Of a stretch of 63,684 nucleotides of DNA, positions 15,902 through 49,557 are shown one piece after another. The DNA lies in NCBI GenBank assembly GCA_041665385.1, contig JBAYIX010000004.1, positions 1-63,684 on the forward strand, written 5' to 3'. The position numbers were made by a program, and so were the translations under genes. The notes beneath the pieces were generated by a model, which did not search any database, was not told where the DNA came from, and saw nothing but the letters and a program-made list of their open reading frames with translations. Origin of the DNA: Minisyncoccota bacterium. Its GTDB lineage: Bacteria > Patescibacteriota > Minisyncoccia > Phycocordibacterales > PALSA-1337. How positions within the stretch are numbered: position 1 is the first letter of the stretch; every line of letters starts with the position of its first letter.

Positions 15902-17158
15902 CTACACTCTACCGCTCTTCACAAAAAAGTAAACATTGATGAGCAACATCACCACCCACGATACTCCGTTTTCCACCACCGCCCCCGCGAGCCCATAACT
16001 ATAGATGAGCACCACCGATAGAAATATCGTCACAATATTACTCAGCACCGTGAGCTTGTAAAGTGTCACCGTATCCCTCTTCACTTGAAAATATGAACTG
16101 AAAAGCGCTATTCCCGGCACAGTAGCAAGCCCAAGCATATATACCTGCGAATACCAGACCGCGTCCAAATACTTCGGAAAGAAAATAGCATAGATATACG
16201 GCGCAGCAAAATAATAGACCGCAACACCAAGGATCGTCACAGCTGTCAGACGAAAGACCTTATCGAGCACACTAGCGCGGAGTAGGCTCGGATCCGCACT
16301 CGACATCTTTGGCAGAGCAATATTAAAAAGGTTTTTATAGCTTCCCTTCACCTGCTCCGGTATAGCAATAGCAAAAGCATAGATCGCGAGCTCTGCCGCG
16401 CCCAAGAAATGAAATACTAGAACCTTGTCGAGCTGATTTGCGAGCGTACCAAAGAAGTTCATATAGCTCACATGCTTGCCATACGATATCATATCCGGAT
16501 CTGTAACATTGTTTGGCTGATATTTCCGAATAATATAAAAATAGAATAGACTTGCAAATATCGCACTTGAAATAAAATTTACTGCTACGAGCACTACGGC
16601 ATCATGTATGAATATCGCGGTAACTATGAGGAGTAGTGTCGTACCTATCTGTGACGACATTGCAAACACTGTCGATCTTTTGAAATCCTTCCTACCGGAA
16701 AAAAGTGAATTCGACAGACTGTAGGCATTTATGAGGGGCATACATGTACCTGCGATGATCAATGCGATACCAAGTCCGATATTTTCTACGAAGAAATAGT
16801 ACAGTGCCATAACAAGCGCCACTGCCCACGGGAACACACCCCAGCGTAGACTGGTCCGCACTGCATCTCGGAGCACACCCTCCTTCCCCGCCGCGACAGC
16901 CTGTATGACGGCAGTTCCCATACCCGCCAAAGACAGCGCGCCCAGTATGCTCACCGCAGAGAGTATGAACTTGTAGTTACCATACACTTCGCGTGGCAAG
17001 TATGCCGCGAAAACAACTGCGGAGGCAAAAACCAAAGCCAGAGAAATAGCCTGACCAAAGGAAGTCCAAAATCCGGATACAACCGCATAGAGCATATCGG
17101 TCTTGAAGTACCTTTCGCTCAGACGCAAGAGATCATATGTTTTTTGCTTTATAGACAT
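15902..17158 (-). CDS. Wzx-like oligosaccharide/polysaccharide flippase (MOP superfamily)
   Basis: 418 aa with ~12 predicted TM segments. The N-terminus (LRLSERYFKTDMLYAVVSGFWTSFGQAISL) and overall architecture are typical of polysaccharide biosynthesis flippases. Confidence 0.65.
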   Translation of the reverse strand: MSIKQKTYDLLRLSERYFKTDMLYAVVSGFWTSFGQAISLALVFASAVVFAAYLPREVYGNYKFILSAVSILGALSLAGMGTAVIQAVAAGKEGVLRDAVRTSLRWGVFPWAVALVMALYYFFVENIGLGIALIIAGTCMPLINAYSLSNSLFSGRKDFKRSTVFAMSSQIGTTLLLIVTAIFIHDAVVLVAVNFISSAIFASLFYFYIIRKYQPNNVTDPDMISYGKHVSYMNFFGTLANQLDKVLVFHFLGAAELAIYAFAIAIPEQVKGSYKNLFNIALPKMSSADPSLLRASVLDKVFRLTAVTILGVAVYYFAAPYIYAIFFPKYLDAVWYSQVYMLGLATVPGIALFSSYFQVKRDTVTLYKLTVLSNIVTIFLSVVLIYSYGLAGAVVENGVSWVVMLLINVYFFVKSGRV

Positions 17159-17901
17159 TACTTTAGTCGGAGCACGTATATCATCTCATGGAACAGACCA
17201 GGGATGATATGACGAAATACAATGTCCGCCAATGGTTGAAGTGTACGACCCAGCACCGGAATCGCCCAGAGCTTTGGCACAAAGAGACCGTTCGGAATTT
17301 TCTTTATGATATGAAAATGCTTCCGAAGCATGATCTCATACTTGGCATACGACACATAGTCTTTGCGATACTCCGCATCTCGAAGCTTGAGCCTGGCATG
17401 TATAGAGTCATGTGCCGCCAGACTGGTCATATATATGCCATCTTTTTTTATATACTGTTTCAAAAAAGCCATTTCACCTTCATATATTGCCGGTGCTAAG
17501 TAGCCTAGACCGAGAGCGATATCAAATGAACCTTCCATGCCCGCATTGGGAAAAACTTGGTTATCTTTTACAAAAAAAGAAATTTTTGGATCAGTCGTGA
17601 TACGCTTCGCTGTCTCGATCATATCTATGGAAATATCCGTACCGACTAGAGCAGAAAAGTTTTCCGGAAATCTTTGCGAGACTGCACGTGTCATTACTCC
17701 ATCTGCACAGGCAATATCTATGAGTTTCATATCCTTTTTTCCACTCACATATTTTGCCAATAAACGAAGTGTTATTGCTAACCTATTCTGGAAAAAGTAT
17801 TGGGTATAACTTTTGGGCGCACCGAGATAGCGCTTCCTTGAATAGGATTCGCTTTCTTTGTTATAGAAGGAAATTATTTCGGTTTCTCTAGGATTTGGCA
17901 T
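17158..17901 (-). CDS. Class I SAM-dependent methyltransferase
   Basis: Motif I-like KLIDIACADGVMT followed by an acidic residue (VGTDIS). It overlaps the downstream gene by 1 nt. Confidence 0.65.
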   Translation of the reverse strand: MPNPRETEIISFYNKESESYSRKRYLGAPKSYTQYFFQNRLAITLRLLAKYVSGKKDMKLIDIACADGVMTRAVSQRFPENFSALVGTDISIDMIETAKRITTDPKISFFVKDNQVFPNAGMEGSFDIALGLGYLAPAIYEGEMAFLKQYIKKDGIYMTSLAAHDSIHARLKLRDAEYRKDYVSYAKYEIMLRKHFHIIKKIPNGLFVPKLWAIPVLGRTLQPLADIVFRHIIPGLFHEMIYVLRLK

Positions 17902-17915
17902 GAATGTAGACGCAC

Positions 17916-18027
17916 GTCATGAAAGGTAATTGTGGGCTTTTTGTATGATTTGTGAAGTATTATCAATACTCGGACCCTGCACAACTATTTCAAATTATAC
18001 AAAAAGCCTGCAATTACCTTTCATGAC
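17916..18027. repeat. Nested-palindrome element F (subfamily 1 core, - orientation)
   Basis: The arms are 17916-17946 / 17997-18027: 29 Watson-Crick pairs plus T:G and G:T. The 38-nt interior is the exact reverse complement of element D's interior. The right arm covers the stop and last 4 codons of the 18014 gene. Confidence 0.85.
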
Positions 18028-19204
18028 CATTGTACCATTTGAGCAAATATTTGATACGCTCGTCAAGACTGAAATATTTTTGCACACGCTCGCGTCCGGC
18101 AGCACCAAAGGCCACTGCTTTCGCCTCATCTTTTAGAAATTCGACCATACGGCCTGCGACTTCGCTAGTATTATTCGGGTCTACTACATAGCCGGTCTCT
18201 CCGTGTGCAACGACTTCCTTTGTACCACCATATTTCGTGCCTACGACCGGCTTGCCCGCCGCCATAGCCTCCAGATTGATAGTTGGAAACGGGTCGAGAT
18301 ACAAAGATAGCACGGTTACCAACCGAACAGACAATATTGCACGCTCCATGTCCTCATGACTGAGCCAGCCTAGAAACTTTATACTTTTTTCTATATCGAG
18401 TTCCCTTGCCCGATCATGGATCTTTTTAGCAATATCAGTATCAGCTTTTCCCGCAATGAGGAGAGTTGTATCGGGTACATCTTTCAAAATTTCTTTCATG
18501 GCGGCGAGTGCTACGAAGGCACCCTTTGCTCCCGAAAGTCGCCCGCCGAATAGAACAAAATGATCACTGACAGAGGTCGCCGTGTAAGCGCTCTCAGTAA
18601 TTGGAGCAATGCCATTATGCATCGTCACAACATTTTCAATTCCATTTCTTTGTAGAGCCGTGCGCAAAGCATCACTCACAGCAAACACCCGATAAACATT
18701 TTTTAAATATCTCTTTATTACTATATTACGAAATGGATTATAGCTGGTACGGTATTCCATAAAATCCTTCCACGCAGAATGCGGACGATCTTCTTCCGAG
18801 ATCTTACCGTAAGCAAGGGTCATAGCATCATGGGCAGTCAAAAACACTCTGGCACCGCTTTCTTTTGCCAACTTGAGCGCATAGTAAGAAATATGCTCGT
18901 GGATATTGTGTGCATGGACGACGTCGGGATGTAGATCTCGTACTATTTTTCGAAGCTCTTTTATCAGAGGCTTATTATTGAGACTTTTATACGCCCGCAC
19001 ACGCCGAGGGTAATTGGAATATATCCGATGAATAATAATTCCATTTTCCTCAAAAGTACCAACTTCTTCCTTTTTTTGTACAGAGGTCACAACTACGACT
19101 TCATGACCGAGGGTCCGGAGAACCAGAGCATCACCGTGCGCTATTATGCCCGCACCGCCCTGGGCATGTGGTGGAAAGTCATCGGATAGGATGAGAATGC
19201 GCAT
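18014..19204 (-). CDS. Glycosyltransferase family 4 (GT-B fold)
   Basis: MRILILSDDFPPHAQGGAGI N-terminus and a C-terminal E-x7-E-type region FPTINLEAMAAGKPVVGTKYGGTKEVV. Confidence 0.8.
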   Translation of the reverse strand: MRILILSDDFPPHAQGGAGIIAHGDALVLRTLGHEVVVVTSVQKKEEVGTFEENGIIIHRIYSNYPRRVRAYKSLNNKPLIKELRKIVRDLHPDVVHAHNIHEHISYYALKLAKESGARVFLTAHDAMTLAYGKISEEDRPHSAWKDFMEYRTSYNPFRNIVIKRYLKNVYRVFAVSDALRTALQRNGIENVVTMHNGIAPITESAYTATSVSDHFVLFGGRLSGAKGAFVALAAMKEILKDVPDTTLLIAGKADTDIAKKIHDRARELDIEKSIKFLGWLSHEDMERAILSVRLVTVLSLYLDPFPTINLEAMAAGKPVVGTKYGGTKEVVAHGETGYVVDPNNTSEVAGRMVEFLKDEAKAVAFGAAGRERVQKYFSLDERIKYLLKWYNGHER

Positions 19205-19205
19205 A

Positions 19206-19829
19206 TTATTTCTTCCTGGCTATGATATAGGTATTGGTATATATCCGACCGGGCCTGGAAAAACGATCGAAGAAACAGATGAACTTTTCCACATAACGGA
19301 ATATCCTCTGCTTCGTGGCATGATGCTTTTTGTTGTAAGGGTCAAAGAGGCTAAAGTGCACCATCTCGGAAAGAGTAGAGAAGAGTCCACCATAGCTCTC
19401 GCACTCGATCACTTGGAATCCATTGCTTTCGAAAAGTGAAGTCATACCCTCTTTGGTATATCGGAAATAGTCATGCGGATCGGCATGGAACGGTTGCATG
19501 AAAGGCGCCGAGAGTATACATGTACCACCACTTCGAAGCAGTCTGGAAATCTCTGCGACCATGACCCACGGCATACGCACATGCTCCAAAACCTGCGTGG
19601 AAACAATTGTATCGAAACTCTTGTCTGCAAGCGGAACTTTGTGCACATCACCTACTATGTCTATGTTCGGTCCGGCTACCATGTCGAAGGTTGTGTATTC
19701 TGTAGTTCGAGGCTGTATGAGACCGCGATACTTTGCATTGCCCGCACCAAAGTCCAGAGTCTTCCCGGAAATATGCTGCAGAGAATGTCGGATGACGTCG
19801 CGTGTATGGAGTATGTTTTTATTTGCCAT
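19206..19829 (-). CDS. SAM-dependent methyltransferase (Methyltransf_11-like)
   Basis: TLDFGAGNAKY motif I and FDTIVSTQVLEHV. ATG 19829 overlaps the upstream stop by 11 nt; the track start at 19871 is an extension. Confidence 0.7.
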   Translation of the reverse strand: MANKNILHTRDVIRHSLQHISGKTLDFGAGNAKYRGLIQPRTTEYTTFDMVAGPNIDIVGDVHKVPLADKSFDTIVSTQVLEHVRMPWVMVAEISRLLRSGGTCILSAPFMQPFHADPHDYFRYTKEGMTSLFESNGFQVIECESYGGLFSTLSEMVHFSLFDPYNKKHHATKQRIFRYVEKFICFFDRFSRPGRIYTNTYIIARKK

Positions 19830-22356
19830 TTTGTTTGTTGTCGGACCCATCATAAGTAAATACGATATCATGACTACCCATGGGAATGTAGAGCGCCATG
19901 TAGGTATAGTTTGCTTTCAATATCTCTCTCGGCTTGCCATCTATTGTAGCAGACCAGTCGGGTAGCCAGGTATTGCCGACGAAGAGATACGCATCTTCTG
20001 TGGTAGTTGCCGCAAACTTCATAGTTTTCGAACCGACGATGCCCGCTACGCGAGCAAAGCTTTTATTTCCCGCTTTTACATTTTTCTCCATGTTTTCTAT
20101 CAATATTGTCGGACCAGTACTCGAGGCGATTGCGCTCACATATGACTTGAATATTTCCTCATTATTTTTGCCCGAGAGGTTTCGTACATTCCTCGTCAGG
20201 AAATACCTAGGCCACACATTATTGAGTTCATAAATATAGACAGGCGAATCGCATGAACCGACCTTTTCAAATCCTATTTCCTGCAAATCCGGATCATTAA
20301 TAGCAAAGAAGGATAAGACATATTTGACATTCATAGATCGCAATATGTTTTTACGTTCCGCGAACAATCTAACCTTATCTTCGAGCGAAAGCGGTGCCGA
20401 CCCGATATCCATACCATAGCTGTCCGTCACCGCAAAGCGCGAGCCTGCGTAGCCGATGATATCACTCACACGGACTGGTAAGTATGGTTCATAACCATCA
20501 GCGCTTTCTATGCCATATATCATATTCATGTTTGTCTCCATGAGCTCTTTTCGAAGAAGGAAATCGTCGTGCGAAACTTCCCAATTCCCCGCAGTCGGAT
20601 AGGAACAACGCACCGACTCATTGAACATCGCAAGACCATTCAGAGGAGAAAAGATACGGAAGGGTTGCTGTTTCTCTGCTAAATTTATAGACACATTTTC
20701 CGAAATGTTTTCTTCAGACTTATTTTTATTTTCATTTGCCATTATTATTTCATACGATTTCGGCGGAGTAAGATATTCATTTCTAGGTATCGCATGAACA
20801 TATCCGGCATGTGCCAGAGCGAAATTTAATGCGACGATCACGACAGCATACACACCCAAATTCCTTTGTGACATCTTTTGCAAATTTTTCAACCACCAAA
20901 ATGTGATTACAGACATTGCCACAAAAGTAAGTACACCCAGACTAGCAATAGAAACCTGGCTCAAATAAGTATTCACATATGAATCTATAAGCTTGGTATA
21001 GTGCTCTACTGGTAGTCCAGCGGAAGTCTTACTGTACATATTTGCCATAAAATATTTCTCTGCCACATCTTGGATTTTGCCATGGAAAAATATATGAGCT
21101 ATTGAAAAAGCGGTAATTATAGGCAGAGCTATAATAAGGAATGTCCGTTTCAGCCATTTCAACATCTTTTCTAATCCATTTACAACACTAGCTTTATTGA
21201 CAAGAATATAATCCAGAACAAAGCCCAGATAAAGTGCGATGCAAAAGTCTCCTGCGAACATTATTCGTGGCGCTTCGCGAAAAGTCTTTACAAGTGGTAG
21301 ATAATGAAAAATGTATGTGACGGGAGAATACTTGAGCGAGGCGATCAAAGCAAATAGTCCCATAATCAGAAAGAAACCGGATTCTGAACGCAAGTTCGCT
21401 ATGCGTTTCCAGTTTATGAGTCCGTAGAGAGCGAGGAAGAGAGGTAATATGCCTATATAATTCTGGAATGCCTGAGAATAAGGTATGGGTGAATATGGCA
21501 CACTGAACTGCGGCAAGAGGTAGTGGATAGCGTGGTAAGGCATATAAGCATAGGCAAAAGCAGAAGCCAGGCTTACTCCTTCCAGACGCTGTGTGAGGGG
21601 CAGGAAGTCCTGTATGGCACTTATGAGCGGGTGTCCCACTAGATAAGAGATACCGAACATAAACGCAAACAAAACTACTTCTTCGATCCAAAAGCTCATC
21701 ATGCTTCTGCTATTATCCGGATATTTGAAGCTTACCCAAGTTTTGAACAACCAATACGCCGCGACAAAAATATGCACATAGATCAGGAACTGCACATGGC
21801 CGGACAACCAGCCGATACCGAGCAGAATACCAGTCACAAAAAAAAGTGAGTATTTTTTCATTCTGCCACCTTCATAGGCGATATGGAGTAGGTAAAATGC
21901 GAGTGGTAATAGGCAATAATAAATCGTGATAATAATGGTTTCCGACCACAGCATAACTTGGCCGGCAAAGATATAGATAATTCCAGCCAAAATAGCGGAT
22001 AGATGTGAAAGTCCTATCCGCCTACCAAATAGATATGTGAAAACATATGCTCCCGCTATGAAACTCATATTAAGAAAAACAAAAGCACCCAGAGCATCAA
22101 AAAAGTACGATGCGATGTAGCTTATGGGCGAGAACCATGTAGTAGAGACCGATACCAAGATAGGAAATCCGGAAATTATCCCCTGCTCTATGACATCGGG
22201 TTTGGAGAAAAGTGCGTTGAAATATGGCAAATAGTTTATAAGCACATCGAGATGGGCAAATATCGCATTGGAAAAAATAACCGCACGGAAAACAAAAGCC
22301 ACCACCAGGAGCGGCAGAAGAAAAAGTAAAGTATTTTGCAATTTAAGATTTTTCAT
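19819..22356 (-). CDS. YfhO-like polytopic membrane glycosyltransferase (GT-C type)
   Basis: 845 aa with many TM helices. The C-terminal signature is WLPDWSATIDGKPREILKANYTYMALYIPMGSHDIVFTY, as in YfhO-family proteins. Confidence 0.7.
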   Translation of the reverse strand: MKNLKLQNTLLFLLPLLVVAFVFRAVIFSNAIFAHLDVLINYLPYFNALFSKPDVIEQGIISGFPILVSVSTTWFSPISYIASYFFDALGAFVFLNMSFIAGAYVFTYLFGRRIGLSHLSAILAGIIYIFAGQVMLWSETIIITIYYCLLPLAFYLLHIAYEGGRMKKYSLFFVTGILLGIGWLSGHVQFLIYVHIFVAAYWLFKTWVSFKYPDNSRSMMSFWIEEVVLFAFMFGISYLVGHPLISAIQDFLPLTQRLEGVSLASAFAYAYMPYHAIHYLLPQFSVPYSPIPYSQAFQNYIGILPLFLALYGLINWKRIANLRSESGFFLIMGLFALIASLKYSPVTYIFHYLPLVKTFREAPRIMFAGDFCIALYLGFVLDYILVNKASVVNGLEKMLKWLKRTFLIIALPIITAFSIAHIFFHGKIQDVAEKYFMANMYSKTSAGLPVEHYTKLIDSYVNTYLSQVSIASLGVLTFVAMSVITFWWLKNLQKMSQRNLGVYAVVIVALNFALAHAGYVHAIPRNEYLTPPKSYEIIMANENKNKSEENISENVSINLAEKQQPFRIFSPLNGLAMFNESVRCSYPTAGNWEVSHDDFLLRKELMETNMNMIYGIESADGYEPYLPVRVSDIIGYAGSRFAVTDSYGMDIGSAPLSLEDKVRLFAERKNILRSMNVKYVLSFFAINDPDLQEIGFEKVGSCDSPVYIYELNNVWPRYFLTRNVRNLSGKNNEEIFKSYVSAIASSTGPTILIENMEKNVKAGNKSFARVAGIVGSKTMKFAATTTEDAYLFVGNTWLPDWSATIDGKPREILKANYTYMALYIPMGSHDIVFTYDGSDNKQNGK

Positions 22357-23461
22357 AGAGAGCGATGATGTCCCTCGTAACTTTCGCTATATCATGATCT
22401 TCAGCCCACTTTCTCGCCGCAGTGGAAAAGCGACTTTTTTCATTTAGAAGCACGTGGAGCTTCCCTGCCACCTCATCCGGATTTTTGGGATCGACGACGA
22501 AGCCCGACACGCCGTCACTTATGGCATCTTCCGCGCCAGAATGAGTGGATCCCATAGCGGGTACGCCATAAGCGTTGGCTTCGAGATATACCAGACCAAA
22601 CCCTTCCGGAGCGTTGCCTTCCTGTACAGAAAGCATGAGGAAAACATCTGCCTCGCGGTAGAGTTTACGCTTTTCTTCTTCACTGACACGGCCGAGGAAT
22701 ACGGTATTCTTTTCCAACCCGGCGCTCTCTATCTCATCCTTTAGTTCGTGAAAGTACGTGCTTTCCTGATCACATTTGCCTGCTATACGATATTCAAATT
22801 TGTCTCCGTATTTTTCTCTGTAGACACCGAGAGCCCTCGCCGATTCTATGAGTCCTTTTCTAGGCTTTACAGCACCGAGAAAGAGGATGATCTTCTTTTT
22901 CTCAGTATCCATATTAGAAAATCCCTTATCTACTATAGATGCTGTATCTCCATATTCAGTGAGATCGATACCGTTATTTATGACTGTTATTTTTTCTCCC
23001 GCCAACCGATCACCAAAATCTGTGTGCATCATACTTTTCATATGCTCGCTCGTATACCTGCTCACGGCTATTATTCCCGCCATTTTTTTGTAAACACGAT
23101 AAAAATTCCACAGAGCTATCTTCTTTTTGAGTTTGTCCTCCATCAAACTTGGTATGTAGGAAAATGTACCGTGTGCGGTCATAAACATCTTTGCCCGACC
23201 CGGCTTCAGATACGTGGCAACATTTGCATATGGTTCTACTAGGAAATGAATGATGTCCGGACCGAAAGCTTTTATCTGCTTTTTTATTTTCTTGGATAAG
23301 AGATATATGCTGAGCGGATTTGCTAGGTATTCGAGTGGTTTTCCGGGCTCATACACTAGGACTTCGTGCCCTGCTTTTTTCATCGCACCTACTACATCTT
23401 TGCTATAGCGACTCCAGCCGTCATTACCGTCGAGACTAGTTGTGATAAATAGTATTTTCAT
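22343..23461 (-). CDS. Glycosyltransferase family 4
   Basis: EGFGLVYLEANAYGVPAMGSTHSGAEDAISDGVSGFVVDP. ATG 23461 forms an ATGA overlap with the upstream stop. Confidence 0.8.
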   Translation of the reverse strand: MKILFITTSLDGNDGWSRYSKDVVGAMKKAGHEVLVYEPGKPLEYLANPLSIYLLSKKIKKQIKAFGPDIIHFLVEPYANVATYLKPGRAKMFMTAHGTFSYIPSLMEDKLKKKIALWNFYRVYKKMAGIIAVSRYTSEHMKSMMHTDFGDRLAGEKITVINNGIDLTEYGDTASIVDKGFSNMDTEKKKIILFLGAVKPRKGLIESARALGVYREKYGDKFEYRIAGKCDQESTYFHELKDEIESAGLEKNTVFLGRVSEEEKRKLYREADVFLMLSVQEGNAPEGFGLVYLEANAYGVPAMGSTHSGAEDAISDGVSGFVVDPKNPDEVAGKLHVLLNEKSRFSTAARKWAEDHDIAKVTRDIIALYEKS

Positions 23462-37004: not shown

Positions 37005-37005
37005 T

Positions 37006-38284: not shown

Positions 38285-39379
38285 CTAACTAAATTTATTG
38301 ATGGTCTCAACAACATACTCAACCTCCTGTTCCGTCATCCCGTTATACAATGGCAAACTCAGCTGTATGTCCGCATACTTTTCTGTAATAGGAAAATCGC
38401 CTTTCTTGAATCCTAATCTTTTATAAGCATTCGAAAGGTGTGGCGGTATCGGATAGTGGATCATAGTCTTGATACCATTTTCCAAAAGGAACTTCTGCAG
38501 TTCATCTCGCCTATCACATCGTACACTGAAGATATGCCAGATGTGATCTGCTCCCTTTTTTACTTTAGGTAATATTACCTGCGGGTTTTTTATACCTACT
38601 AAATATTTGTTTGCCAATTTTTCTCTCTCCACATTCAATTCATGCAGATGAGATAGTTTGATACGTAAAAATCCCGCTTGTATCTCATCCAAACGCGAAT
38701 TCACACCTTCGATCTCATTTTGATATTTCACCTCACTGCCGTAGTTGTGTAGTAAACGGACAGTACGGGCGAGTTTGTCATCATTTGTCGTGACTGCCCC
38801 ACCATCGCCAAAGCCTCCCATATTCTTGGTAGGATAAAAGCTAAAGCAGGCTATGTCGCCGAGGGATCCTGTCATCTTGCCATCAAACTTTGCTCCATGC
38901 GACTGTGCGCAATCTTCTATTACAAATAATTTGTGCTTTTTTGCGATCTTGGCTACAGCGGTCATATCTGTCGCTTGACCAAACAAATGCACAACCATTA
39001 CTGCCTTTGTCTTCGGTGTTATCGCAGACTCGATCTTCGAAATATCAATATTGTAATATTCATCCGGTTCGACGAAGACAGGTGTCACACCATTTTCTGT
39101 AATACCTAGAACAGTAGCGATGTATGTATTGGCCTGCACTATAACTTCATCGCCCTCACCTATACCGAGAGCTCTCACAGCCAAAATCAACGCATCCAAC
39201 CCAGAATTGAGCCCAACACAATGTTTCGTACCTACAAAACCAGCAAATTCCTTTTCGAAGTTTTCTACTTCCTTTCCGAGGATATACCAGCCCGATCGTA
39301 GTACTCGCAAAGCCGCATCCTCATATTCCTTTTGGTATGCCTTGTACTGTCTGTCTAGAACGTTGTATTCAACCTTCAT
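38285..39379 (-). CDS. DegT/DnrJ/EryC1/StrS-family PLP-dependent sugar aminotransferase
   Basis: The N-terminus [46 protein letters not shown] is typical of the family, as are [18 protein letters not shown] (PLP-lysine region) and a C-terminal ...[10 protein letters not shown]. Confidence 0.88.
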
Positions 39380-39383
39380 TTTA

Positions 39384-42788: not shown

Positions 42789-43784
42789 TTATGCCATACT
42801 ATCGAGGATTGTGAGCACTCGAGCTTTCGTGGAATGTTCACGGAGAATGCGGACATATTCTTCGGACATATTTGACGTTTTGTAGTCAGATTTCAAAAAG
42901 TTTGATAGTTTATCGAGTTGGCTTTCGAATTCCTCCAGGTTTCCAAATTGCCATATACGTTCATAATCCAGCGCTCTGCTACCCGGCTCATAAATATCCA
43001 GTTTTTCTGTGAGCAAAATGCAGTTATTGCCCAATATTTCCCAGAACCTGGCCGTATCATATCCACCACCGCCTACAGAAACACCTACCTTGGCGCGTGA
43101 AAGCAGATCATAAAATTTCACCCTGCCATTATCTTTTGGTGCGAGACCCATCATACGCGAAAACAGAGATCCATTTGTGTTTTTTGTCACAGTTCTCAGT
43201 CCGTTCGCATTCTCTACCAGCTTTCGTACCTCACGCCTAAGGTTTGGGTATTCTTCCTGACCGAACACACAGACTATGTCTATATCTTTTTTCGTATGAG
43301 GATCGTAATTTGAGATATACCTCCGCTCGATACCAAATGGAAGAGGGATTATACCACCCATGTAAGGTTTCTCTCTCCGGAAATATGATTTGCACCTGGC
43401 AAGCATTTCTTTATCTATCGCACCCTCGCCATCATAAGTGCCTTTGATCACCTTGTTCCGTATATCCATATCGTATCTCCTATTCCGACCCAGCTCAGAA
43501 CCGTCTACGAATACCGTCTTGTCCCATCTCCCGATTTTCTCTGCCGTATCATAGTCGGTATTTCCCTTGCCATTACAAAAAATAATAACATCTGCAGACT
43601 TTGCAAAGGAAATAAAATCATCTTTTTCAGCATACCAAGATGTGATATCCAAATAAGATTTATAATCCGAAGAATATCTGATCTCATTTCCCGCACCATC
43701 GCCTTTCAAAGCCGAAAGGCCATCTATGACAGTATTGGTGAGATAGTCTTCCTTGTACAAAGGTGTGATAAGGGCGATCTTCAT
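42789..43784 (-). CDS. Hypothetical protein, possibly a GT-B-like glycosyltransferase
   Basis: 331 aa with MKIALITPLYKED N-terminus and VGVSVGGGGYDTARFWEILGNNCILLTEK. The call rests on context only; no firm family assignment. Confidence 0.35.
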   Translation of the reverse strand: MKIALITPLYKEDYLTNTVIDGLSALKGDGAGNEIRYSSDYKSYLDITSWYAEKDDFISFAKSADVIIFCNGKGNTDYDTAEKIGRWDKTVFVDGSELGRNRRYDMDIRNKVIKGTYDGEGAIDKEMLARCKSYFRREKPYMGGIIPLPFGIERRYISNYDPHTKKDIDIVCVFGQEEYPNLRREVRKLVENANGLRTVTKNTNGSLFSRMMGLAPKDNGRVKFYDLLSRAKVGVSVGGGGYDTARFWEILGNNCILLTEKLDIYEPGSRALDYERIWQFGNLEEFESQLDKLSNFLKSDYKTSNMSEEYVRILREHSTKARVLTILDSMA

Positions 43785-44839
43785 ATATTTAGTTTCAATA
43801 AAAGTTTTGATACCAAGTCTTTTGGCTGAAGCTCTTTTTCGAACAAGTCCTTGGCATTTCGCCCAATCTTTTCCCGAAGTTCTGTATTTTTCTTCAATAA
43901 CAGTATCTTTTCGGCAAGACTCTTATCATATCCCGGCATAGCAAATATGACATTTTCATTATCAGTGAGTAATTCACGTATCGCCGGACTATTTTCCGTT
44001 ATTATGGCTTTACCGAGAGACATTCCTTCGAAGACCTTATTTGGTATGACTCTCCCTGCCTTGTCCGTAATTCCAAATATACCCAGAACCACATCTGCTT
44101 CAGCCATCATATTTACGAGGTCACCAAAAGGCATTTGAGGAAAATATTCGACGTTTTCCGGTTTCAACTCTTCTTGCACTATCATCATTTTCTCATATTC
44201 CTGACCGCGACCTATTATGCGAAAAGAAATACCCTTTTCGGTTTCGATGAGCTTTGCAGCTCGGATAATATATTCTATGCCATGCAGAGGAATGTACGTA
44301 CCATGAAAATGTACGATAAATTTTCCAGTGCGATTCGTACTTTTCGTGACGCTCAACTTCGCATTTGAACCCACGAAAACTGGAATGATCCTGCCCGAGA
44401 GAATGCCAAAAGTTTTGTGAAAATATTGTGCATTTTCCGCAGTATCGACTGTCACATATTTTGCTACACGCACACTGTACCAATCCAAAAGAAAATCATG
44501 CATGGCACCTAGGCTCCACCTGCCATATCTTTTCCTGTCAAAAACATTTGTATCATAGAGAGATGTAAATGCGTCAAATATTATAAGACCTCTCGGAAAA
44601 AGGAATTTCGCTAACCAGGCGATACTTTGTCCCGGTGTAGCAACAAATAATATGTCCGGCTTCACAGCTAGTTCTTTCCATTTTTTGCGAAGCATAGAAT
44701 ATTTGGTCCATCCTCGGTATTTCCGGGGATCAACAGAACATTCCAACACATTCCATCCATTGTCCTGAAATCCCTGCATGAGTACGCTATTCCGTGAATA
44801 TTCCCCGTCATATATGCCAAAAAATACTACAGTTTTCAT
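43781..44839 (-). CDS. Glycosyltransferase, GT-B fold (GT4-like)
   Basis: C-terminal half reads FIVHFHGTYIPLHGIEYII...VIPNKVFEGMSLGKAIITENSPAIRELL. Confidence 0.65.
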   Translation of the reverse strand: MKTVVFFGIYDGEYSRNSVLMQGFQDNGWNVLECSVDPRKYRGWTKYSMLRKKWKELAVKPDILFVATPGQSIAWLAKFLFPRGLIIFDAFTSLYDTNVFDRKRYGRWSLGAMHDFLLDWYSVRVAKYVTVDTAENAQYFHKTFGILSGRIIPVFVGSNAKLSVTKSTNRTGKFIVHFHGTYIPLHGIEYIIRAAKLIETEKGISFRIIGRGQEYEKMMIVQEELKPENVEYFPQMPFGDLVNMMAEADVVLGIFGITDKAGRVIPNKVFEGMSLGKAIITENSPAIRELLTDNENVIFAMPGYDKSLAEKILLLKKNTELREKIGRNAKDLFEKELQPKDLVSKLLLKLNI

Positions 44840-45906
44840 TTCATTTTTTCTACCATATTCCTTATGAGGACCGGTAAATCTGCCCGCTCCTTCGCAATCC
44901 TCTGAAGATCTTTGGTAACTGCCTGAATATCCCCAGAAGAAAACAGAGCTATGATCTTCGATGCCAGATCTTTCGCATCGTTTTCTAGAAACAAGAGGCT
45001 TTCTGCATAAACACCAAAATATCTTTCATAAGTCTTATTTGAAGCCAGCACCGGCACACCGGCCGCCATAGATTCGAGCACGGACTTATCGACTCCACCT
45101 GTAGGTGCCAGATTTACGGAAATATCCGTGGAAGCATATTGCTGGGGCATGTCGGCGTTCAATACTCTTCCCACAAATCTTATCTCCCCATTCAGTCCAC
45201 TCTCATCTATAAAATTTCGGAGTTTCTTTGCGTATACTTCATCCTGTTCTGTAACAGGAGCGCCCACGAGAAGTATTTCAAATTTCTTTTGCCATGTTTT
45301 TTTCAGGATAAGAGCCGCTCGAACCAAGGTCTCAAAATTCTTTATCTCCGTGATCCTGCCAGCATGGATTATCCGCACCGGTTCTGTACCTATCTCCTTT
45401 GTGCGGACGACTCTCACATATGCATTCACATCTATGCCATGACCGATGATCTCCACCTTTGTGCTATCCAGCTGAAAGCTCTCGAGAGAAGCAGTGAATA
45501 TCCTGTCACAAAGTTTTTCTGCGATACGCAACTTCATATCCACATTGCGGTGCGTATACCAGAGAAATATCTTTTTCCCCATAATCTTCCACGGCAGACC
45601 ACCCAGAACTACATATATGGGATTCATGTGAACAAAAACTCGGTCATATTCTTTTCTCTCTCGAATAATGTGACGGTAAAACGCTAGGCTATACGCAATC
45701 CTGTCAAAAAGACCAGAATATGTTTTCCTCTTCTCTTTACCGAGTGAGATGACTCTCACGTTTGGAGGTAGACTGTGCCGACCCTCTTCGAGAGATATGA
45801 CCGTGACTCTCTCATAGTATTTTGCATACTCTGTTATCCAGGAATGAAAAAAGGCAAGATACGAGTTATCCATGTCTACACTCTGAGTTGTGATCAAGAT
45901 TTTCAT
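44836..45906 (-). CDS. Glycosyltransferase family 4
   Basis: RIIHAGRITEIKNFETLVRA...GGVDKSVLESMAAGVPVLASNKTYERYF. Confidence 0.75.
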   Translation of the reverse strand: MKILITTQSVDMDNSYLAFFHSWITEYAKYYERVTVISLEEGRHSLPPNVRVISLGKEKRKTYSGLFDRIAYSLAFYRHIIRERKEYDRVFVHMNPIYVVLGGLPWKIMGKKIFLWYTHRNVDMKLRIAEKLCDRIFTASLESFQLDSTKVEIIGHGIDVNAYVRVVRTKEIGTEPVRIIHAGRITEIKNFETLVRAALILKKTWQKKFEILLVGAPVTEQDEVYAKKLRNFIDESGLNGEIRFVGRVLNADMPQQYASTDISVNLAPTGGVDKSVLESMAAGVPVLASNKTYERYFGVYAESLLFLENDAKDLASKIIALFSSGDIQAVTKDLQRIAKERADLPVLIRNMVEKMK

Positions 45907-46343
45907 GAAACCAAGCTTTGTTTGAAGATAAGCTTTTGATATACGAAGAAACTAACTATCGCTATACATCCTGCCGCTATGATCTGAGATATCATGTAAT
46001 GAGAACCGAATATGTCCGTGAGCAAGTACATGAGGCCTGTATTCACGGCCAAGTTTATGACACTTACCGTAAAATAAAGTGCACCCTGAGCACCCACACC
46101 GTCACTGGAATGATCTCGGAACGTCCAATACTTTTGCAAAGTGAAGCTCACGCAGAAGGCAATGATAAAGGCGAATACCGTCGAAACTAGATACCATATG
46201 TGCAAAATATCCGTAAAGAGGTAAAGGAAGGCCAGGTCCGTGACCGCCGCCGTACCGCCAGATATGACATAACGCGCGATCTTCATTTTTTTTGCGTGCT
46301 TTTCATCCAAAGTGGCATAAGTATTTTTCATCCAGGTGATCAT
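45903..46343 (-). CDS. GtrA-family membrane protein (polyprenyl-phosphate-sugar flippase family)
   Basis: 146 aa with 4 TM helices. ARYVISGGTAAVTDLAFLYLFTDIL...SFTLQKYWTFRD is the GtrA-like signature. Confidence 0.8.
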   Translation of the reverse strand: MITWMKNTYATLDEKHAKKMKIARYVISGGTAAVTDLAFLYLFTDILHIWYLVSTVFAFIIAFCVSFTLQKYWTFRDHSSDGVGAQGALYFTVSVINLAVNTGLMYLLTDIFGSHYMISQIIAAGCIAIVSFFVYQKLIFKQSLVS

Positions 46344-46346: not shown

Positions 46347-47357
46347 TTATTTGTTATTATTTAAAGCTTGCACGATCTTGCGGCAGACATCCCCCGGCTC
46401 ATTATCAACTATGTTAGCACCGCTCTCCCTCGCAACACCAACATCAGTTGATACTACAGGCAGTCCCGCAGCTTTTGCCTCTATTAGGGTCATCCCGTAA
46501 CCTTCAAAGAGAGATGTGTTCAGGAATAGATCTGCAGTTTTGTAATAGGAAGCCAATGTTGTCTTGTCCGCCCATTTTTCCACGATTACGTTTTGTACGA
46601 CACCCAACGAGGCGGACAGAGATTTGATTTTCTCTTCCATCGAGCCTTCTCCGACTATTATAAGACCTGCATCTGCCATGTGCCCAATAACTCCTTTCCA
46701 GGAATGAAGTGCGAGCTCAAAATTCTTTTCTTTTTCCAGGCGGGAAGCCATGAGTACGATCTTACTGAACTGCGGATATTTTTTGTGCAGATCTACTGTT
46801 ACTGGGGCACTCTCTATCCAACTTACATCTATCGCGATGGGTTTTACAGTCACCTTATTTGCATCGATTTTGATCTTATCTACTAGGTAATTCCTTATCC
46901 GCTCCGACACAACCCTTACACTATCAGCCTGCGGCAAATATTTTAATGCCAATGTCTTCCTGATGCGATTTGACACTCGGTGAGCATAAAAAGGGCTACC
47001 CAAATCTTCGTGGACTTGGATTTCAAGCGGTAGGTGCGATTCATTTTTGAGGGCCAGTCCGGCCATAGCTGTGAGCGAAGCGTCTTGGCAGGTGATATGA
47101 GTTATACCCCGCTTTGCTATTATGAAACGACCAAGTTTGATAGCGTCAAAGGGATATAAATATTTTGAAAATGATCTCGTAGGGTATACCCAACAATTCG
47201 AAGATACCGTGATTTCTCTATGATCCTTTTTTGAAAAGATTACTATATGTACCTCGTCCCAATCCTTGGCATAGTCCACTTGCCTGGCGCGCACATTACT
47301 CCCCTCTTCGAAGATTTTGCGATCAGTCGAGATCATCAAAAGTTTTCTCTGAGACAT
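46347..47357 (-). CDS. Glycosyltransferase family 4
   Basis: LMASRLEKEKNFELAL...SLFEGYGMTLIEAKAAGLPVVSTDVGVARE. The start is ATG 47357 (MSQRKLLMIS). Confidence 0.78.
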   Translation of the reverse strand: MSQRKLLMISTDRKIFEEGSNVRARQVDYAKDWDEVHIVIFSKKDHREITVSSNCWVYPTRSFSKYLYPFDAIKLGRFIIAKRGITHITCQDASLTAMAGLALKNESHLPLEIQVHEDLGSPFYAHRVSNRIRKTLALKYLPQADSVRVVSERIRNYLVDKIKIDANKVTVKPIAIDVSWIESAPVTVDLHKKYPQFSKIVLMASRLEKEKNFELALHSWKGVIGHMADAGLIIVGEGSMEEKIKSLSASLGVVQNVIVEKWADKTTLASYYKTADLFLNTSLFEGYGMTLIEAKAAGLPVVSTDVGVARESGANIVDNEPGDVCRKIVQALNNNK

Positions 47358-47361
47358 TGTA

Positions 47362-48390
47362 TTATTTTTTACCACGCACCTGCGCTAGCTCCGCTATCTC
47401 ATTTGCGATATCTGACCAGGTATGTACAAAAGAAAAATTACGGACTTTTTGTGCCTGAGCCGTTCTGTTTGCCGGATCTGCGAGCCAGACGATCTTGGAT
47501 GTTATATCTGCAGGATTTTGAGGATCGACAAATATAGCACACTCTCGTATCCTGTCTGTTATTCCGTTTTCTTTTGTGACGATGAATGGTGTGCCTGCGC
47601 GGATAGCATCAAATATCATATTTGGGCTGATATCGCCGAGAGATACTAGTATGACTGCATAGGACCGTCTGATCTTTTCGAAGAAGCTATCATAGACTGC
47701 CTTGCCTAGGTCTAGGTCTATCTCCGGAAAACCTTTTTTTTCTACCTCCTTTTTTGCATCTTCAAAAGCGCTTTTTAGGACATCTATATTTTTCCATGTG
47801 AGCTGACGTGTAGCACCGACGAAAGAACGATTTTCTGGTTCTGTCACCTCTGGTCTCTCGCCTACGAAGTTTTCCACGATCCGACTTTTAGCCGGGTCGA
47901 GCTTGTATGCTTTCTCAAATATCTTTCTCTGCCAGTCGGTGCTAAAGATTAGCGTACCAGCATTGCGAAGCGCCTTACCACCCAGACGGAATATTGTTTT
48001 TTCTTTCCGAGAAAGTTTTCCTAGACTACTGTCATAAAAATCTCGAAACAGGACCTTGTCAGCTGTTCTCTCTGTGTATGTCTCCCAGAGGAAGTCTCCA
48101 CCTGTGCGTAGGATATATTTCTTTCTCATTATCTTGCAGGCATACATAGCAGGGACGGCGGCAGACCAAGTATCGAGTACGAGGATCAGGTCTGCATTCC
48201 AGCCCTTGCGCAAAATTTTCAAGAAATACAAAAAATGCCTGACACCTGGAGGGAGAGCTCTTTCCCAACGATATGCCGCCACCTTTACATCATGACCTTG
48301 TTCCTTCCAAGTCTGGTAAAGATTTCTCGCGTATTGTGCAGGTCCACCGATATCCGGCGGGTAAATGCCTGATGCAATGAGTATTCTCAT
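47362..48390 (-). CDS. Glycosyltransferase, GT-B fold (GT4-like)
   Basis: MRILIASGIYPPDIGGPAQYARNL N-terminus and C-terminal DISPNMIFDAIRAGTPFIVTKENG. Confidence 0.7.
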   Translation of the reverse strand: MRILIASGIYPPDIGGPAQYARNLYQTWKEQGHDVKVAAYRWERALPPGVRHFLYFLKILRKGWNADLILVLDTWSAAVPAMYACKIMRKKYILRTGGDFLWETYTERTADKVLFRDFYDSSLGKLSRKEKTIFRLGGKALRNAGTLIFSTDWQRKIFEKAYKLDPAKSRIVENFVGERPEVTEPENRSFVGATRQLTWKNIDVLKSAFEDAKKEVEKKGFPEIDLDLGKAVYDSFFEKIRRSYAVILVSLGDISPNMIFDAIRAGTPFIVTKENGITDRIRECAIFVDPQNPADITSKIVWLADPANRTAQAQKVRNFSFVHTWSDIANEIAELAQVRGKK

Positions 48391-48396
48391 GAATTT

Positions 48397-49557
48397 TCAT
48401 TTTAGCAGAAATTCCTTCATTTCCAAAGCCACACCATCCCAATCATACTTTTCCTTAACCATTATTTTTGCCTGCTCTATTATTTTTGTTTTGAGCACGT
48501 TATCAGATAACAGTTTATTTACCTGATCAGCAATACTTTTTGGGTTGCCCACTTCAGAGAAAAGTCCGGTTTCGCAATCAACCAAGAAATCTACGATGCC
48601 TCCAACAGGTGTAGCAATGACAGGTATGCCTGCTGCCATAGCTTCGATAAAAGAATTACCAAAACCTTCCGACAAAGAAGGACGAATAAAAATATCGCAT
48701 GCTTGCAAGTACGCCGGCATATCGACATGAGAAACAAAACCTAAGAATTCTACCCTTCCGCTCACTCCGAGTTCCAGGGAAAGGGACTTGAGTTTGTTTT
48801 CATCACGTCCGGTTCCCAATACGATCAACTTCACATTATCAGGCAAATGACGAAGTGAAGAAATGATATCCCCTACGGCATTTTTTGGTACCAGCCTGGA
48901 GGTAGTAATGAGCAAAATATCACCTGCATTCTTATTGATTTTTCCTTGAATATTTCGTTTCTCCACTTCAGCCGCCTGTTTTGAAAAGTGGTCGTAATTC
49001 ACGCCATTTGGCACAACTACGATCGCCTCTTTTGCACCCATATGCCGTGACCATTCTGCCAGATAGTTCGATATTACTTGTATCTTGTCCGCTGCGCGAA
49101 ATATCATTTTATAAAATGGCTTGAATATGCCTTCGCGCCTCTCAAAATTATCACCTTCCTGAATAGTCAGAATAAATGGAATACTAGGTTTTGCCTTTCT
49201 GAGAAGCATGGCGGCAAAGCCAGCGTAGCTCGCCATCACAGACCATGTAGCATCATATTTATTTTTCTTACAAAGAGAAAGAGCTTTGAAAAAAGCTAGA
49301 AATGGAAAAAGGAGTTTTGAAAGAGGAAATATTTGTGAACTCTTCGTACCGGAGCCGAACCATGGCAGACCGACACGATACACATTTACATTTCCCACAC
49401 GTTCAAAAGCAGGTGCATGTTTCCTCATCGTTATCATGTCAAACTCTATTTCGCTAGGACTTATGCGATCAGTTATTTCCTTTACAGCCACTTCCGCCCC
49501 TCCTATGCTGCGCGGATAGTAAACCAAAGAAAATATGAGTATTCGGTGCGGTTTCAT
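48397..49557 (-). CDS. Glycosyltransferase family 4
   Basis: ILIFSLVYYPRSIGGAEVAVKEI and PSLSEGFGNSFIEAMAAGIPVIATPVGGIVDFL. Confidence 0.8.
   Translation of the reverse strand: MKPHRILIFSLVYYPRSIGGAEVAVKEITDRISPSEIEFDMITMRKHAPAFERVGNVNVYRVGLPWFGSGTKSSQIFPLSKLLFPFLAFFKALSLCKKNKYDATWSVMASYAGFAAMLLRKAKPSIPFILTIQEGDNFERREGIFKPFYKMIFRAADKIQVISNYLAEWSRHMGAKEAIVVVPNGVNYDHFSKQAAEVEKRNIQGKINKNAGDILLITTSRLVPKNAVGDIISSLRHLPDNVKLIVLGTGRDENKLKSLSLELGVSGRVEFLGFVSHVDMPAYLQACDIFIRPSLSEGFGNSFIEAMAAGIPVIATPVGGIVDFLVDCETGLFSEVGNPKSIADQVNKLLSDNVLKTKIIEQAKIMVKEKYDWDGVALEMKEFLLK

Follow-up and report, generated by a model that had tools for sequence, protein, structure and literature searches.

The stretch of DNA analysed here, called the window throughout, comprises the 63,684 nucleotides (nt) of contig JBAYIX010000004.1 from the assembly of a Minisyncoccota bacterium (GCA_041665385.1), and it contains a long array of genes for what is probably the synthesis of a surface glycan. 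From position 49557 down to 15902, the open reading frame (ORF) listing and the junction table give 29 consecutive ORFs on the minus strand, g1 to g29, which cover 98.8% of the interval. Pfam and NCBIfam profile searches of the ORF translations yielded glycosyltransferases of the GT4 and GT2 families and of the GT-C fold, S-adenosylmethionine (SAM) methyltransferases, flippases and sugar-tailoring enzymes. We consider it likely that this is a modular surface-glycan biosynthesis locus, in which a GT4/Wzx-type pathway for a lipid-linked oligosaccharide is joined with modules that transfer single sugars from polyprenyl phosphate through GT-C enzymes. The genes, in the order of transcription, are the following (aa, amino acids; TM, transmembrane helix).

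48397 to 49557, minus strand: g1, GT4 glycosyltransferase, 386 aa (PF00534, E 9e-40, and PF13439; generic GT4 NCBIfam matches)
47362 to 48390, minus strand: g2, divergent GT4-like GT-B enzyme, 342 aa (PF13439, 36 bits, cut-off 28.5; C-terminal domain match weak)
46347 to 47375, minus strand: g3, GT4 glycosyltransferase, 342 aa (PF00534, E 7e-25)
45903 to 46343, minus strand: g4, small GtrA-family membrane protein, putative polyprenyl-phosphate-sugar flippase (PF04138, E 2e-25)
44836 to 45906, minus strand: g5, GT4 glycosyltransferase, 356 aa (PF13692, PF00534)
43781 to 44839, minus strand: g6, GT4 glycosyltransferase, 352 aa (PF00534, E 1e-17)
42789 to 43784, minus strand: g7, possible GT-B enzyme, 331 aa, weak assignment (PF13524, 21.4 bits, under the cut-off of 25)
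41884 to 42780, minus strand: g8, SAM methyltransferase with N-terminal zinc ribbon and C-terminal hydrophobic segment (PF13489, E 8e-23)
40850 to 41884, minus strand: g9, exostosin/GT47-like glycosyltransferase (PF03016, E 1e-12, 48 bits, cut-off 33)
39384 to 40838, minus strand: g10, PMT_2/ArnT-type GT-C enzyme, 484 aa, about 10 TM (PF13231, E 1e-11; 'MDE' in the first loop)
38285 to 39433, minus strand: g11, DegT/DnrJ/EryC1 sugar aminotransferase, probable start 39379 (PF01041, E 6e-116)
37006 to 38091, minus strand: g12, short-chain dehydrogenase/reductase (SDR), NDP-hexose 4,6-dehydratase-like (PF16363; PF01370, E 1e-47)
36069 to 37004, minus strand: g13, GT2 polyprenyl-phosphate glycosyltransferase of GtrB/ArnC/PgfS type (PF00535)
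34936 to 36072, minus strand: g14, GT4 glycosyltransferase, conserved core (PF00534, E 9e-25)
34266 to 35027, minus strand: g15, soluble DPM1/AglJ/PpgS-like GT2 enzyme, probably 233 aa with start 34967 (PF00535, E 2e-28)
33394 to 34290, minus strand: g16, SAM methyltransferase with zinc ribbon, conserved core (PF13489, E 3e-31)
31662 to 33425, minus strand: g17, predicted GT-C-fold enzyme of an unnamed Patescibacteria family, 587 aa (structure model and Foldseek)
31052 to 31624, minus strand: g18, hexapeptide-repeat sugar N-acetyltransferase of NeuD/PglB/VioB type (PF00132, E 4e-23; TIGR03570, E 4e-28)
29375 to 31048, minus strand: g19, predicted GT-C-fold enzyme of a second unnamed family, probably 532 aa with start 30973, conserved core (structure model and Foldseek)
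28396 to 29346, minus strand: g20, second GT2 enzyme of GtrB/ArnC/PgfS type (PF00535; full-length match to PgfS, E 1e-60)
27667 to 28389, minus strand: g21, SAM methyltransferase following the GT2 gene g20 (PF13489, E 5e-14)
25853 to 27670, minus strand: g22, GT-C candidate, distant paralogue of g17, 605 aa (by paralogy)
23458 to 25851, minus strand: g23, YfhO-family GT-C enzyme, 797 aa (PF09586, 39.1 bits, cut-off 28.5)
22343 to 23479, minus strand: g24, GT4 glycosyltransferase (PF00534, E 2e-33)
19819 to 22356, minus strand: g25, YfhO-like GT-C enzyme, 845 aa (PF09586, 21.8 bits, under the cut-off)
19206 to 19871, minus strand: g26, SAM methyltransferase (PF08241, E 4e-13)
18014 to 19204, minus strand: g27, GT4 glycosyltransferase (PF00534, E 2e-35)
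17158 to 17901, minus strand: g28, SAM methyltransferase, weaker match (PF13649, 30 bits, cut-off 27)
15902 to 17158, minus strand: g29, Wzx/MOP-family flippase, about 10 TM (PF01943, E 8e-12, 45.6 bits; PF13440, E 1e-10, 41.4 bits)

A first-pass annotation had described 29 minus-strand genes with overlapping start and stop codons and only two gaps above 100 nt, and the ORF calls and the junction table bear this out. Neighbouring genes overlap by 1, 4, 14, 25 or 32 nt or are otherwise spaced by no more than 37 nt at 26 of the 28 junctions, which is the co-directional, closely packed arrangement looked for in an operon; the two larger gaps lie between g11 and g12 (193 nt) and between g27 and g28 (112 nt). 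The longest-ORF starts overshoot in places, and homologues of 233 aa (g15), about 370 aa (g11) and 532 aa (g19) point to internal starts for these three genes, which give the overlaps first reported. When begun at an internal ATG that matches the homologue length, g26 and g15 overlap by 11 or 32 nt. The description as a single-strand array holds in that all 29 ORFs are co-directional, but the extent given for it was too short, as the full minus-strand run goes from 53380 to 8532, is broken only by a plus-strand ORF at 15075-15716, and takes in a DUF4015 gene, an ATPase gene, g1 to g29, a gene for a Wzy_C-TPR protein (TPR, tetratricopeptide repeat), murB and secA. Therefore, strand alone does not delimit the unit. 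The GC content of the locus is 42.7%, and that of its flanks 45-47%.

The host belongs to the Paceibacteria-type Patescibacteria and stems from groundwater. Every named homologue is from a metagenome-assembled genome (MAG) of Patescibacteria (Paceibacterota, Parcubacteria, Uhr-, Buchanan-, Kaiser-, Lloyd-, Falkow- and Curtissbacteria), and the stretch is present in two groundwater DNA metagenomes only and in no RNA run. In the sequencing run that contains it best, the depth of the Logan contigs over the locus is even, at about 12x; these contigs break only at repeat elements and give no sign of a chimeric assembly. A zero-depth stretch in the depth profile (32000-37975) is covered by a 20-kb Logan contig and was treated as an artefact.

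The enzyme inventory of the first-pass annotation (GT4, GT-B, GT2, exostosin-like, polytopic, methyltransferase, flippase and tailoring genes) is matched by the Pfam and NCBIfam profiles. One part of it concerns three large polytopic proteins that had been called uncharacterised and GT-C-like, namely g17, g19 and g22. They drew no Pfam (at E<=0.01 for g17 and g22) or NCBIfam assignment, and the g17 and g19 sequences matched no PDB chain at E<=10. Structure models of g17 and g19 were built from homologue alignments and compared with the PDB by Foldseek. The g17 model (pLDDT 90, pTM 0.91) returned GT-C enzymes as all of its best 37 matches, with PglB (E 3e-7) as the first and STT3, DPY19, AftA, AglB and ArnT among the others, and with TM-scores of 0.50 to PglB and 0.51 to AftA and similar values for DPY19 and ArnT. 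For the g19 model (pLDDT 88, pTM 0.88), the best 19 matches were likewise all GT-C, including ALG12 (E 2e-6, TM-score 0.54/0.59), ALG9, ArnT, DPY19, Pmt4 and EmbA/B. Judged by these models, g17 and g19 are GT-C-fold enzymes. g22 aligns with g17 over its full length (BLASTP, E 1e-9) and retains the invariant Y, R, E, R, H and W of the g17 family, and as a paralogue of g17 it is a GT-C candidate. The first extracytoplasmic loop contains conserved acidic residues of the kind that the first-pass annotation had proposed to look for: the g19 family has an invariant D37-E38, the g17 family an invariant E76 and a nearly invariant D89, and g10 carries its MDE. We also considered g17 and g22 as true homologues of STT3/PglB and rejected this, as there was no STT3 profile match and WWD[YWFN]G occurred in 0 of 30 aligned family members.

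The other polytopic proteins belong to families already named. g23 is a YfhO member, and g25, although under the profile cut-off, is its paralogue (E 3e-61, with 27% identity across 793 aa). When YfhO, PMT_2 and the families of g17 and g19 were compared profile against profile, no relation emerged (probabilities of 0.4-10%), and the six GT-C enzymes thus fall into four separate families: PMT_2 (g10), YfhO (g23 and g25), g17/g22, and g19. With a limit of E<=1e-3, the g17 family alone takes in 2,215 representative clusters, and with E<=1e-10 still 1,625.

The first-pass annotation had seen in the locus a repeated combination of a GT2 synthase, a GtrA flippase and a YfhO or other GT-C transferase. 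This is borne out by the architecture of g13 and g20, by the similarities of g15 and by gene fusions in relatives. Both g13 and g20 have the domain layout of GtrB/CsbB, with two C-terminal TM helices, and share 31% identity; g13 aligns over its full length with PgfS (E 7e-63) and ArnC (E 5e-45), and g20 also aligns to ArnC. g15 lacks TM helices, and its best NCBIfam match is AglJ, and PpgS and a dolichyl-phosphate-hexose transferase are among its other top matches. The GtrA assignment of g4 is firm (89.9 bits, cut-off 26.1). At the level of families, then, a synthase with C-terminal TM helices, a GtrA protein and linked GT-C enzymes are all present.

Comparison across related MAGs, which had been proposed as a check, showed gene order and orientation to be kept. 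Related contigs follow the order (GT4)n-GtrA-GT4-g7-g8-g9-[g10]-...-g14-g15-g16-[g17]-g19-GT2-methyltransferase-GT-C/YfhO. Among 23 related loci anchored on g19 (numbered with L), 17 have g15, 15 have g16 and 14 have g14 as adjacent, co-directional genes, and the conserved core is GT4(g14)-GT2(g15)-methyltransferase(g16)-(g17)-g19. The block order g3-g9 followed by g14-g19 recurs in L024, L025 and L026, and a GtrB-type GT2 gene followed by a g21-type methyltransferase gene in L003, L005, L006, L007 and L024. Beyond the core come Wzx, there on the opposite strand, and then Wzy_C-TPR and secA in L006, L009, L017, L019 and L020. The locus thus has a fixed place on the chromosome, at which the core is conserved and the modules differ. 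L001 lacks g11-g12 and has an SDR and an MBOAT gene at the position of g18, the module g20-g28 lies between g19 and Wzx in the source locus only, and one relative carries a single YfhO gene. By this comparison, the locus is mosaic, with modules that vary around a conserved core, and not a fixed 29-gene entity.

Fusions in relatives join the same components. A g15-like GT2 domain is fused to a g19-like GT-C domain in P0071 and P0072 (40% and 36% identity to the parts) and to a g17-like GT-C domain in P0199 (56% and 45%), P0248 and P0257; P0242 joins a g16-like methyltransferase to a g17-like GT-C (41% and 32%); a g4-like GtrA is fused to a g17-like GT-C in P0016, P0230, P0238, P0266, P0284 and P0294; and a JGI contig encodes a 1008-aa fusion of the g20 counterpart with YfhO. 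These fusions are direct evidence at the genomic level that synthase, flippase and GT-C cooperate, and they indicate that the methyltransferase is part of the same step.

Related loci also carry inserts at the same positions (L025, 12602-14458; L001, 12647-14128), which encode an asparagine-synthase-like amidotransferase, an MBOAT protein with an SDR, and a GNAT protein, and which suggest different glycan decorations in each lineage. In two loci labelled 'uncultured Gammaproteobacteria' in GTDB (L011 and L022), g19-family genes adjoin g15, in L022 with g16 as well; the family is otherwise confined to Patescibacteria, and these bins are probably mislabelled or contaminated.

The five SAM methyltransferases reported earlier, two of them with zinc ribbons, all have Pfam matches. 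The CxxC...CxxC motif is present in the paralogues g8 and g16, and hydrophobic C-terminal segments occur in g8 (TM 260-278) and g21. Two methyltransferase genes directly follow a GT2 gene (g15-g16 and g20-g21). SAM is a cytoplasmic cofactor and, together with the hydrophobic tails of g8 and g21, this leads us to infer that methylation may act on the lipid-linked sugar at the inner face of the membrane, before flipping. The methyltransferase would thus be an apparent fourth component beside the synthase, GtrA and the GT-C enzyme. The analogy is with AglP of Haloferax and with modification of a sugar on its polyprenyl-phosphate carrier, which has precedent in the epimerisation by DprE1/E2 and the deformylation by ArnD; a brief literature search for methylated undecaprenyl-phosphate sugars turned up no direct precedent.

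The cytoplasmic part of the inventory includes eight GT4 enzymes (g1, g2, g3, g5, g6, g14, g24 and g27), of which g2 is the weaker match but still above the Glyco_transf_4 threshold. The position of g7 is conserved in L001, L005, L013, L025 and L026. Among the tailoring enzymes, g11 is PseC/WecE/ArnB-like but under every NCBIfam equivalog cut-off, and the best NCBIfam match of g12, also below its cut-off, is dTDP-glucose 4,6-dehydratase. The joint absence of g11, g12 and g18 was considered as proof of a single pathway and set aside: it is true in L001 but fails in the JGI contig and in L016.

The terminal steps would involve g29, whose scores for both Wzx families are above the cut-off, and a protein encoded outside the 29-gene interval. 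The latter was previously noted as a fusion of O-antigen ligase and TPR domains just downstream, and it has both the PF04932 and the TPR matches.

12536 to 14746, minus strand: Wzy_C (O-antigen-ligase-like) and TPR protein (PF04932, E 4e-21, and TPR)

Over thousands of Patescibacteria proteins, the identity of the Wzy_C-TPR protein stays at 50-64%, and the glycosyltransferases of the locus show 25-60% identity and variable presence. This far stronger conservation favours, as an argument rather than a test, an enzyme of relaxed glycan specificity; the protein most likely carries out final en bloc transfer, and is more probably a ligase or O-oligosaccharyltransferase-like enzyme than a polymerase of repeat units. 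A topology of the TPR domain obtained from a crude hydropathy count was too uncertain to be used.

Taken together, the gene families outline a pathway in two phases. On the cytoplasmic side, up to ten GT-B enzymes (the eight GT4 enzymes, g7 and g9), as judged by family, would build a lipid-carried oligosaccharide, for which the branch g12 -> g11 -> g18 would supply an acetamido-dideoxy sugar, and g29 would flip the product. In parallel, g13, g20 and g15 would charge polyprenyl phosphate with single sugars, methyltransferases would modify the lipid-linked sugar before it is flipped, g4 would flip these donors, and the six GT-C enzymes would transfer the donor sugars outside the membrane, in four-component modules of synthase, methyltransferase, GtrA and GT-C. 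This extracytoplasmic phase is read from family, fold and fusion, and its chemistry is deduced from them. Finally, the Wzy_C-TPR protein would carry out en bloc transfer. A methylated, amino-sugar-bearing surface glycan, as first suggested, is still a reasonable expectation from the inventory.

Two kinds of structured element fill the large gaps of the array, as the first-pass annotation had stated, and a third lies at its end; all are hairpins of repeat families.

38141 to 38270, minus strand: element G, GC-rich, terminator-like structured repeat between g11 and g12 (fold -101 kcal/mol, z -9.5)
17916 to 18027, unstranded: element F, long hairpin of the window repeat family at the g27/g28 junction (-47.8 kcal/mol, z -7)
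15794 to 15902, unstranded: element E, hairpin with 39-bp arms right after the g29 stop codon (-85.6 kcal/mol, z -13; inverted repeat I5)

On the sense strand, the structure of element G is followed by U7, and the element is multi-copy in the metagenome (depth 97 vs 12). Element F has no U tract and shares an identical 49-nt core with a further hairpin, element D (repeat I2); E and F are members of a mobile repeat family with copies at many other gene ends in the window. In relatives, the g11/g12 junction measures 13 nt and the g27/g28 junction 1 nt (L026), so both large gaps result from secondary insertion into an ancestrally tight array. An Rfam scan of the whole window gave no match, and neither F nor G is thus a known riboswitch or leader. 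Scans for promoter and terminator consensus sequences inside the locus gave counts equal to the shuffled expectation, the exception being a hairpin with a T-run at 51421-51391 that precedes the ATPase ORF. Further long imperfect palindromes (arms of 24-52 nt) stand at gene borders at 3869-3985, 5439-5622, 7834-7990, 59810-59920 and 63615-63679, and that at 59810-59920 shares its core with element E.

Several observations weigh against the proposed locus and pathway. (i) An initiating phosphoglycosyltransferase (PF00953/PF02397) was found neither in g1-g29 nor in the scanned window flanks; the sole PF00953 protein of the window (56594-57718) is MraY within a mur cluster (TIGR00445, E 2e-48, vs WecA, E 2e-10). 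(ii) No chain-length regulator (Wzz), LCP ligase or acceptor gene was found among the scanned window ORFs, and six related loci, inspected over about 20 kb, likewise showed no phosphoglycosyltransferase, Wzz or LCP. (iii) None of the enzymes reaches an equivalog-level score, and the identities of the sugars are not assignable from the profiles. (iv) The TM-scores of the models to solved GT-C structures are moderate (0.45-0.59). (v) The target proposed for the methyltransferases is drawn from gene adjacency and one fusion. (vi) Element G looks like an intrinsic terminator, and the array may comprise at least three transcription units (g1-g11, g12-g27 and g28-g29).

The combination of parts resembles several characterised systems. 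Multi-component systems such as GtrA/GtrB/GtrC of Shigella phages, CsbB/GtcA/YfhO and GtlA/GtlB of Bacillus and Listeria teichoic acids and PgfS/PgfM1/PgfE/PgfM2 of Streptococcus mutans share with the locus a TM-tailed GT2 enzyme, GtrA and GT-C enzymes, including true YfhO and PMT_2 members, encoded by adjacent genes, some of which are fused in relatives. In contrast to these systems, six GT-C enzymes of four families here share one GtrA, two of these families have no Pfam or NCBIfam model, a methyltransferase appears as a fourth part (adjacent twice, fused once), the modules sit inside a GT4-rich Wzx-type locus, and the host is a Patescibacterium with a genome of about 1 Mb. The mycobacterial and corynebacterial assembly systems (Ppm1/PpgS, PimE, Mpt, Aft, Emb) and the three-component pentofuranose systems (PMC11127046) likewise feed many GT-C enzymes with polyprenyl-phosphate sugars after a GT4 phase. 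However, the enzymes of the locus have no sequence-level relation to GT87, GT83, GT85 or GT53, the on-carrier step proposed here is methylation rather than epimerisation, and Wzx and Wzy_C are present.

The Agl system of Haloferax volcanii (AglJ, AglG/I/E, AglP, AglB; AglD/AglR/AglS) offers a different likeness: a DPM1-like GT2 enzyme, with AglJ as the best NCBIfam match of g15, soluble glycosyltransferases, a SAM methyltransferase (AglP acts on the lipid-linked glycan), a Wzx-like flippase, a GT-C family that structurally resembles oligosaccharyltransferase, and no requirement for a phosphoglycosyltransferase. The likeness lies in the genes, a monophosphate-linked oligosaccharide and an Asn acceptor being features of Agl; the locus differs in its bacterial host, in a g17 family that lacks WWDYG and an STT3 profile match, and in the Wzy_C-TPR protein, which is absent from Agl. 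The genes g10-g13 also recall the Arn system (ArnB, ArnC, ArnA, ArnD, ArnT, ArnE/F), with a PMT_2/ArnT-type GT-C enzyme, an ArnB-like DegT protein, an SDR and an ArnC-like GT2 enzyme, following the logic by which an amino sugar is placed on undecaprenyl phosphate and then transferred outside. A genuine Arn operon was rejected on the scores (ArnB 201.8 bits vs 631, ArnC 153.9 vs 529, ArnA 45.8 vs 777) and on the lack of the ArnA and ArnD functions. Unlike Arn, the locus has no formyltransferase or deformylase but a NeuD-type acetyltransferase, its SDR is 4,6-dehydratase-like and not a UDP-glucuronic acid decarboxylase, and the monoderm host has no lipid A.

Three kinds of acceptor were weighed for the product. 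That it is a surface protein is plausible, if tentative. The Wzy_C-TPR protein would then act as an O-oligosaccharyltransferase of the PglL/WsaB type on Ser/Thr (or Asn) of pilins, of an S-layer or of giant Gly/Ser/Thr/Asn-rich surface proteins, and the GT-C enzymes (PMT_2, YfhO, g17/g22) would also add single sugars to proteins in a Pgf- or PMT-like manner. Wzy_C domains are also found in O-oligosaccharyltransferases; here the domain is joined with TPRs, which serve protein interaction, and its sequence is strongly conserved against a changing set of glycan genes. The nearest match of g13 and g20 is PgfS, from the protein-glycosylation system of S. mutans, g10 belongs to the PMT_2 family, the best structural matches of g17 include the oligosaccharyltransferases PglB, STT3 and AglB, and a Gly/Ser/Thr/Asn-rich, TM-anchored protein of more than 1055 aa is encoded at 3165-1. 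However, WWDYG is present in none of the 30 aligned g17-family members, and g17 has no STT3 Pfam match; in TM-score, g17 is no closer to PglB than to AftA; no acceptor protein is linked across the related loci, and the topology of the TPR domain is a guess. Glycosylation in Saccharibacteria has been called unexplored, and O-glycosylated pilins have been predicted there (PMC11623550), which favours a protein acceptor.

A wall-linked or capsular heteropolysaccharide made by a classical Wzx/Wzy route is as plausible, and as tentative, as a protein acceptor; the Wzy_C-TPR protein would polymerise, and the GT-C enzymes would decorate side chains in the lactococcal, streptococcal or enterococcal style. 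A Wzx and a Wzy_C protein are both present, cytoplasmic GT4 enzymes are many, the GC content of the locus is below that of its flanks, and its content among relatives is mosaic, a pattern known from O-antigen and capsule loci. Decoration of Gram-positive wall polymers by multi-component GT-C systems is also established (PMC8035078, PMC5836110). However, a Wzy polymerase is usually specific to its glycan and diverges strongly in sequence, unlike the strongly conserved Wzy_C-TPR protein. In addition, the lack of a phosphoglycosyltransferase, Wzz and LCP in the window and in the six related loci speaks against such a route, and six GT-C enzymes to ten GT-B enzymes exceed the usual need of side-chain decoration.

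The array could instead consist of several independent units, transcribed separately, serving different acceptors and accumulated at a recombination-prone site beside secA, which we regard as rather unlikely. The terminator-like element G and the hairpins F and E lie within or at the end of the array, modules vary separately in relatives (L001 without g11-g12, SDR and MBOAT in place of g18, the placement of g20-g28), and the same-strand run continues through murB and secA, so that co-orientation is a property of the genome. Against this, fusions cross the borders of modules, joining GtrA (g4, upstream block) with g17 (core), a single GtrA and a single Wzx serve all modules, the order of g3-g9 and g14-g19 recurs in three relatives, and the two large gaps arose by later insertion at junctions that relatives keep tight.

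A lipoglycan of the mycobacterial lipomannan/lipoarabinomannan type is an unlikely product. In that case, GT4 enzymes would glycosylate a (scavenged) glycerolipid, a flippase would export it, and GT-C enzymes would elongate it from polyprenyl-phosphate sugars. A glycerolipid primer would fit the missing phosphoglycosyltransferase in the window, g15 resembles synthases of the PpgS/Ppm1 type, and the structural matches of g17 and g19 include AftA, AftD and Emb. The GT4 enzymes are generically similar to MGlcDAG synthase, GlcN-PG synthase and IagA/BgsA, but these similarities are non-specific and far under the cut-offs; a Wzx and a Wzy_C ligase-like protein are foreign to the lipomannan scheme, and the locus contains no lipid-related gene. 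Least probable of all, and very doubtful, is a haloarchaea-like assembly free of phosphoglycosyltransferase, in which the glycan would grow on a polyprenyl monophosphate primed by g15, methyltransferases of the g16/g21 type would O-methylate it on the carrier, and g17/g22 would act as WWDYG-less, oligosaccharyltransferase-like GT-C enzymes on surface proteins.

Other features flank the locus that we interpret as a modular surface-glycan pathway. Upstream, an ATPase gene ends 8 nt before g1.

49566 to 51356, minus strand: TraD/VirD4/HerA-like ATPase (PF10412, PF01935; NCBIfam TraD-like)

The ATPase, an uncertain member of the glycan system, has no TM and a Pro/Thr/Ser-rich tail of about 170 aa, and the pair of ATPase and DUF4015 genes adjoins a g1 homologue in L008 too. 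About 440 nt separate the DUF4015 gene from the ATPase gene (51385-51830); this gap has no Rfam match and ends in the hairpin at 51421-51391, whose position upstream of the ATPase gene suggests that the first transcription unit may start with this gene. At the other end, the plus-strand ORF at 15075-15716 (213 aa, no Pfam match) has a terminator-like hairpin of its own at 15739-15764 and lies, in the region 14829-15902, between the long hairpins D and E, inserted between Wzx and Wzy_C-TPR, which are neighbours in relatives. The ORF at 3165-1 on the minus strand (more than 1055 aa) runs off the window and has no Pfam match; it begins with a helix-turn-helix-like cytoplasmic part, has one TM near residue 250 and continues with a Gly/Ser/Thr/Asn-rich extracellular region with the repeated motif 'GNVGIGTTSP', and its product is possibly a surface protein and a candidate glycosylation acceptor. 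Between mraY and a Mur ligase gene, a plus-strand ORF (57730-58383) encodes a 217-aa protein with weak ATE_C/GNAT (FemAB-like) matches, possibly a tRNA-dependent transferase of peptidoglycan branches.

New here are the two GT-C families without a Pfam or NCBIfam model, both of them large, the methyltransferase as an apparent fourth component and the lack of an initiator in the window; the overall design of the locus was already known. In the libraries searched, the literature offered no discussion of GT-C glycosyltransferases in Patescibacteria, the sole co-mention concerning the chicken caecal microbiota. The natural fusions of GT2, methyltransferase, GtrA and GT-C domains provide a testable wiring diagram for such modules, including the unusual idea of on-carrier methylation. 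Patescibacteria are abundant, mostly uncultivated organisms with tiny genomes that live attached to other microbes, so that how they recognise hosts, resist phages and persist probably depends on their surface chemistry. A genome of about 1 Mb still spends about 34 kb on an array that holds 19 glycosyltransferases.

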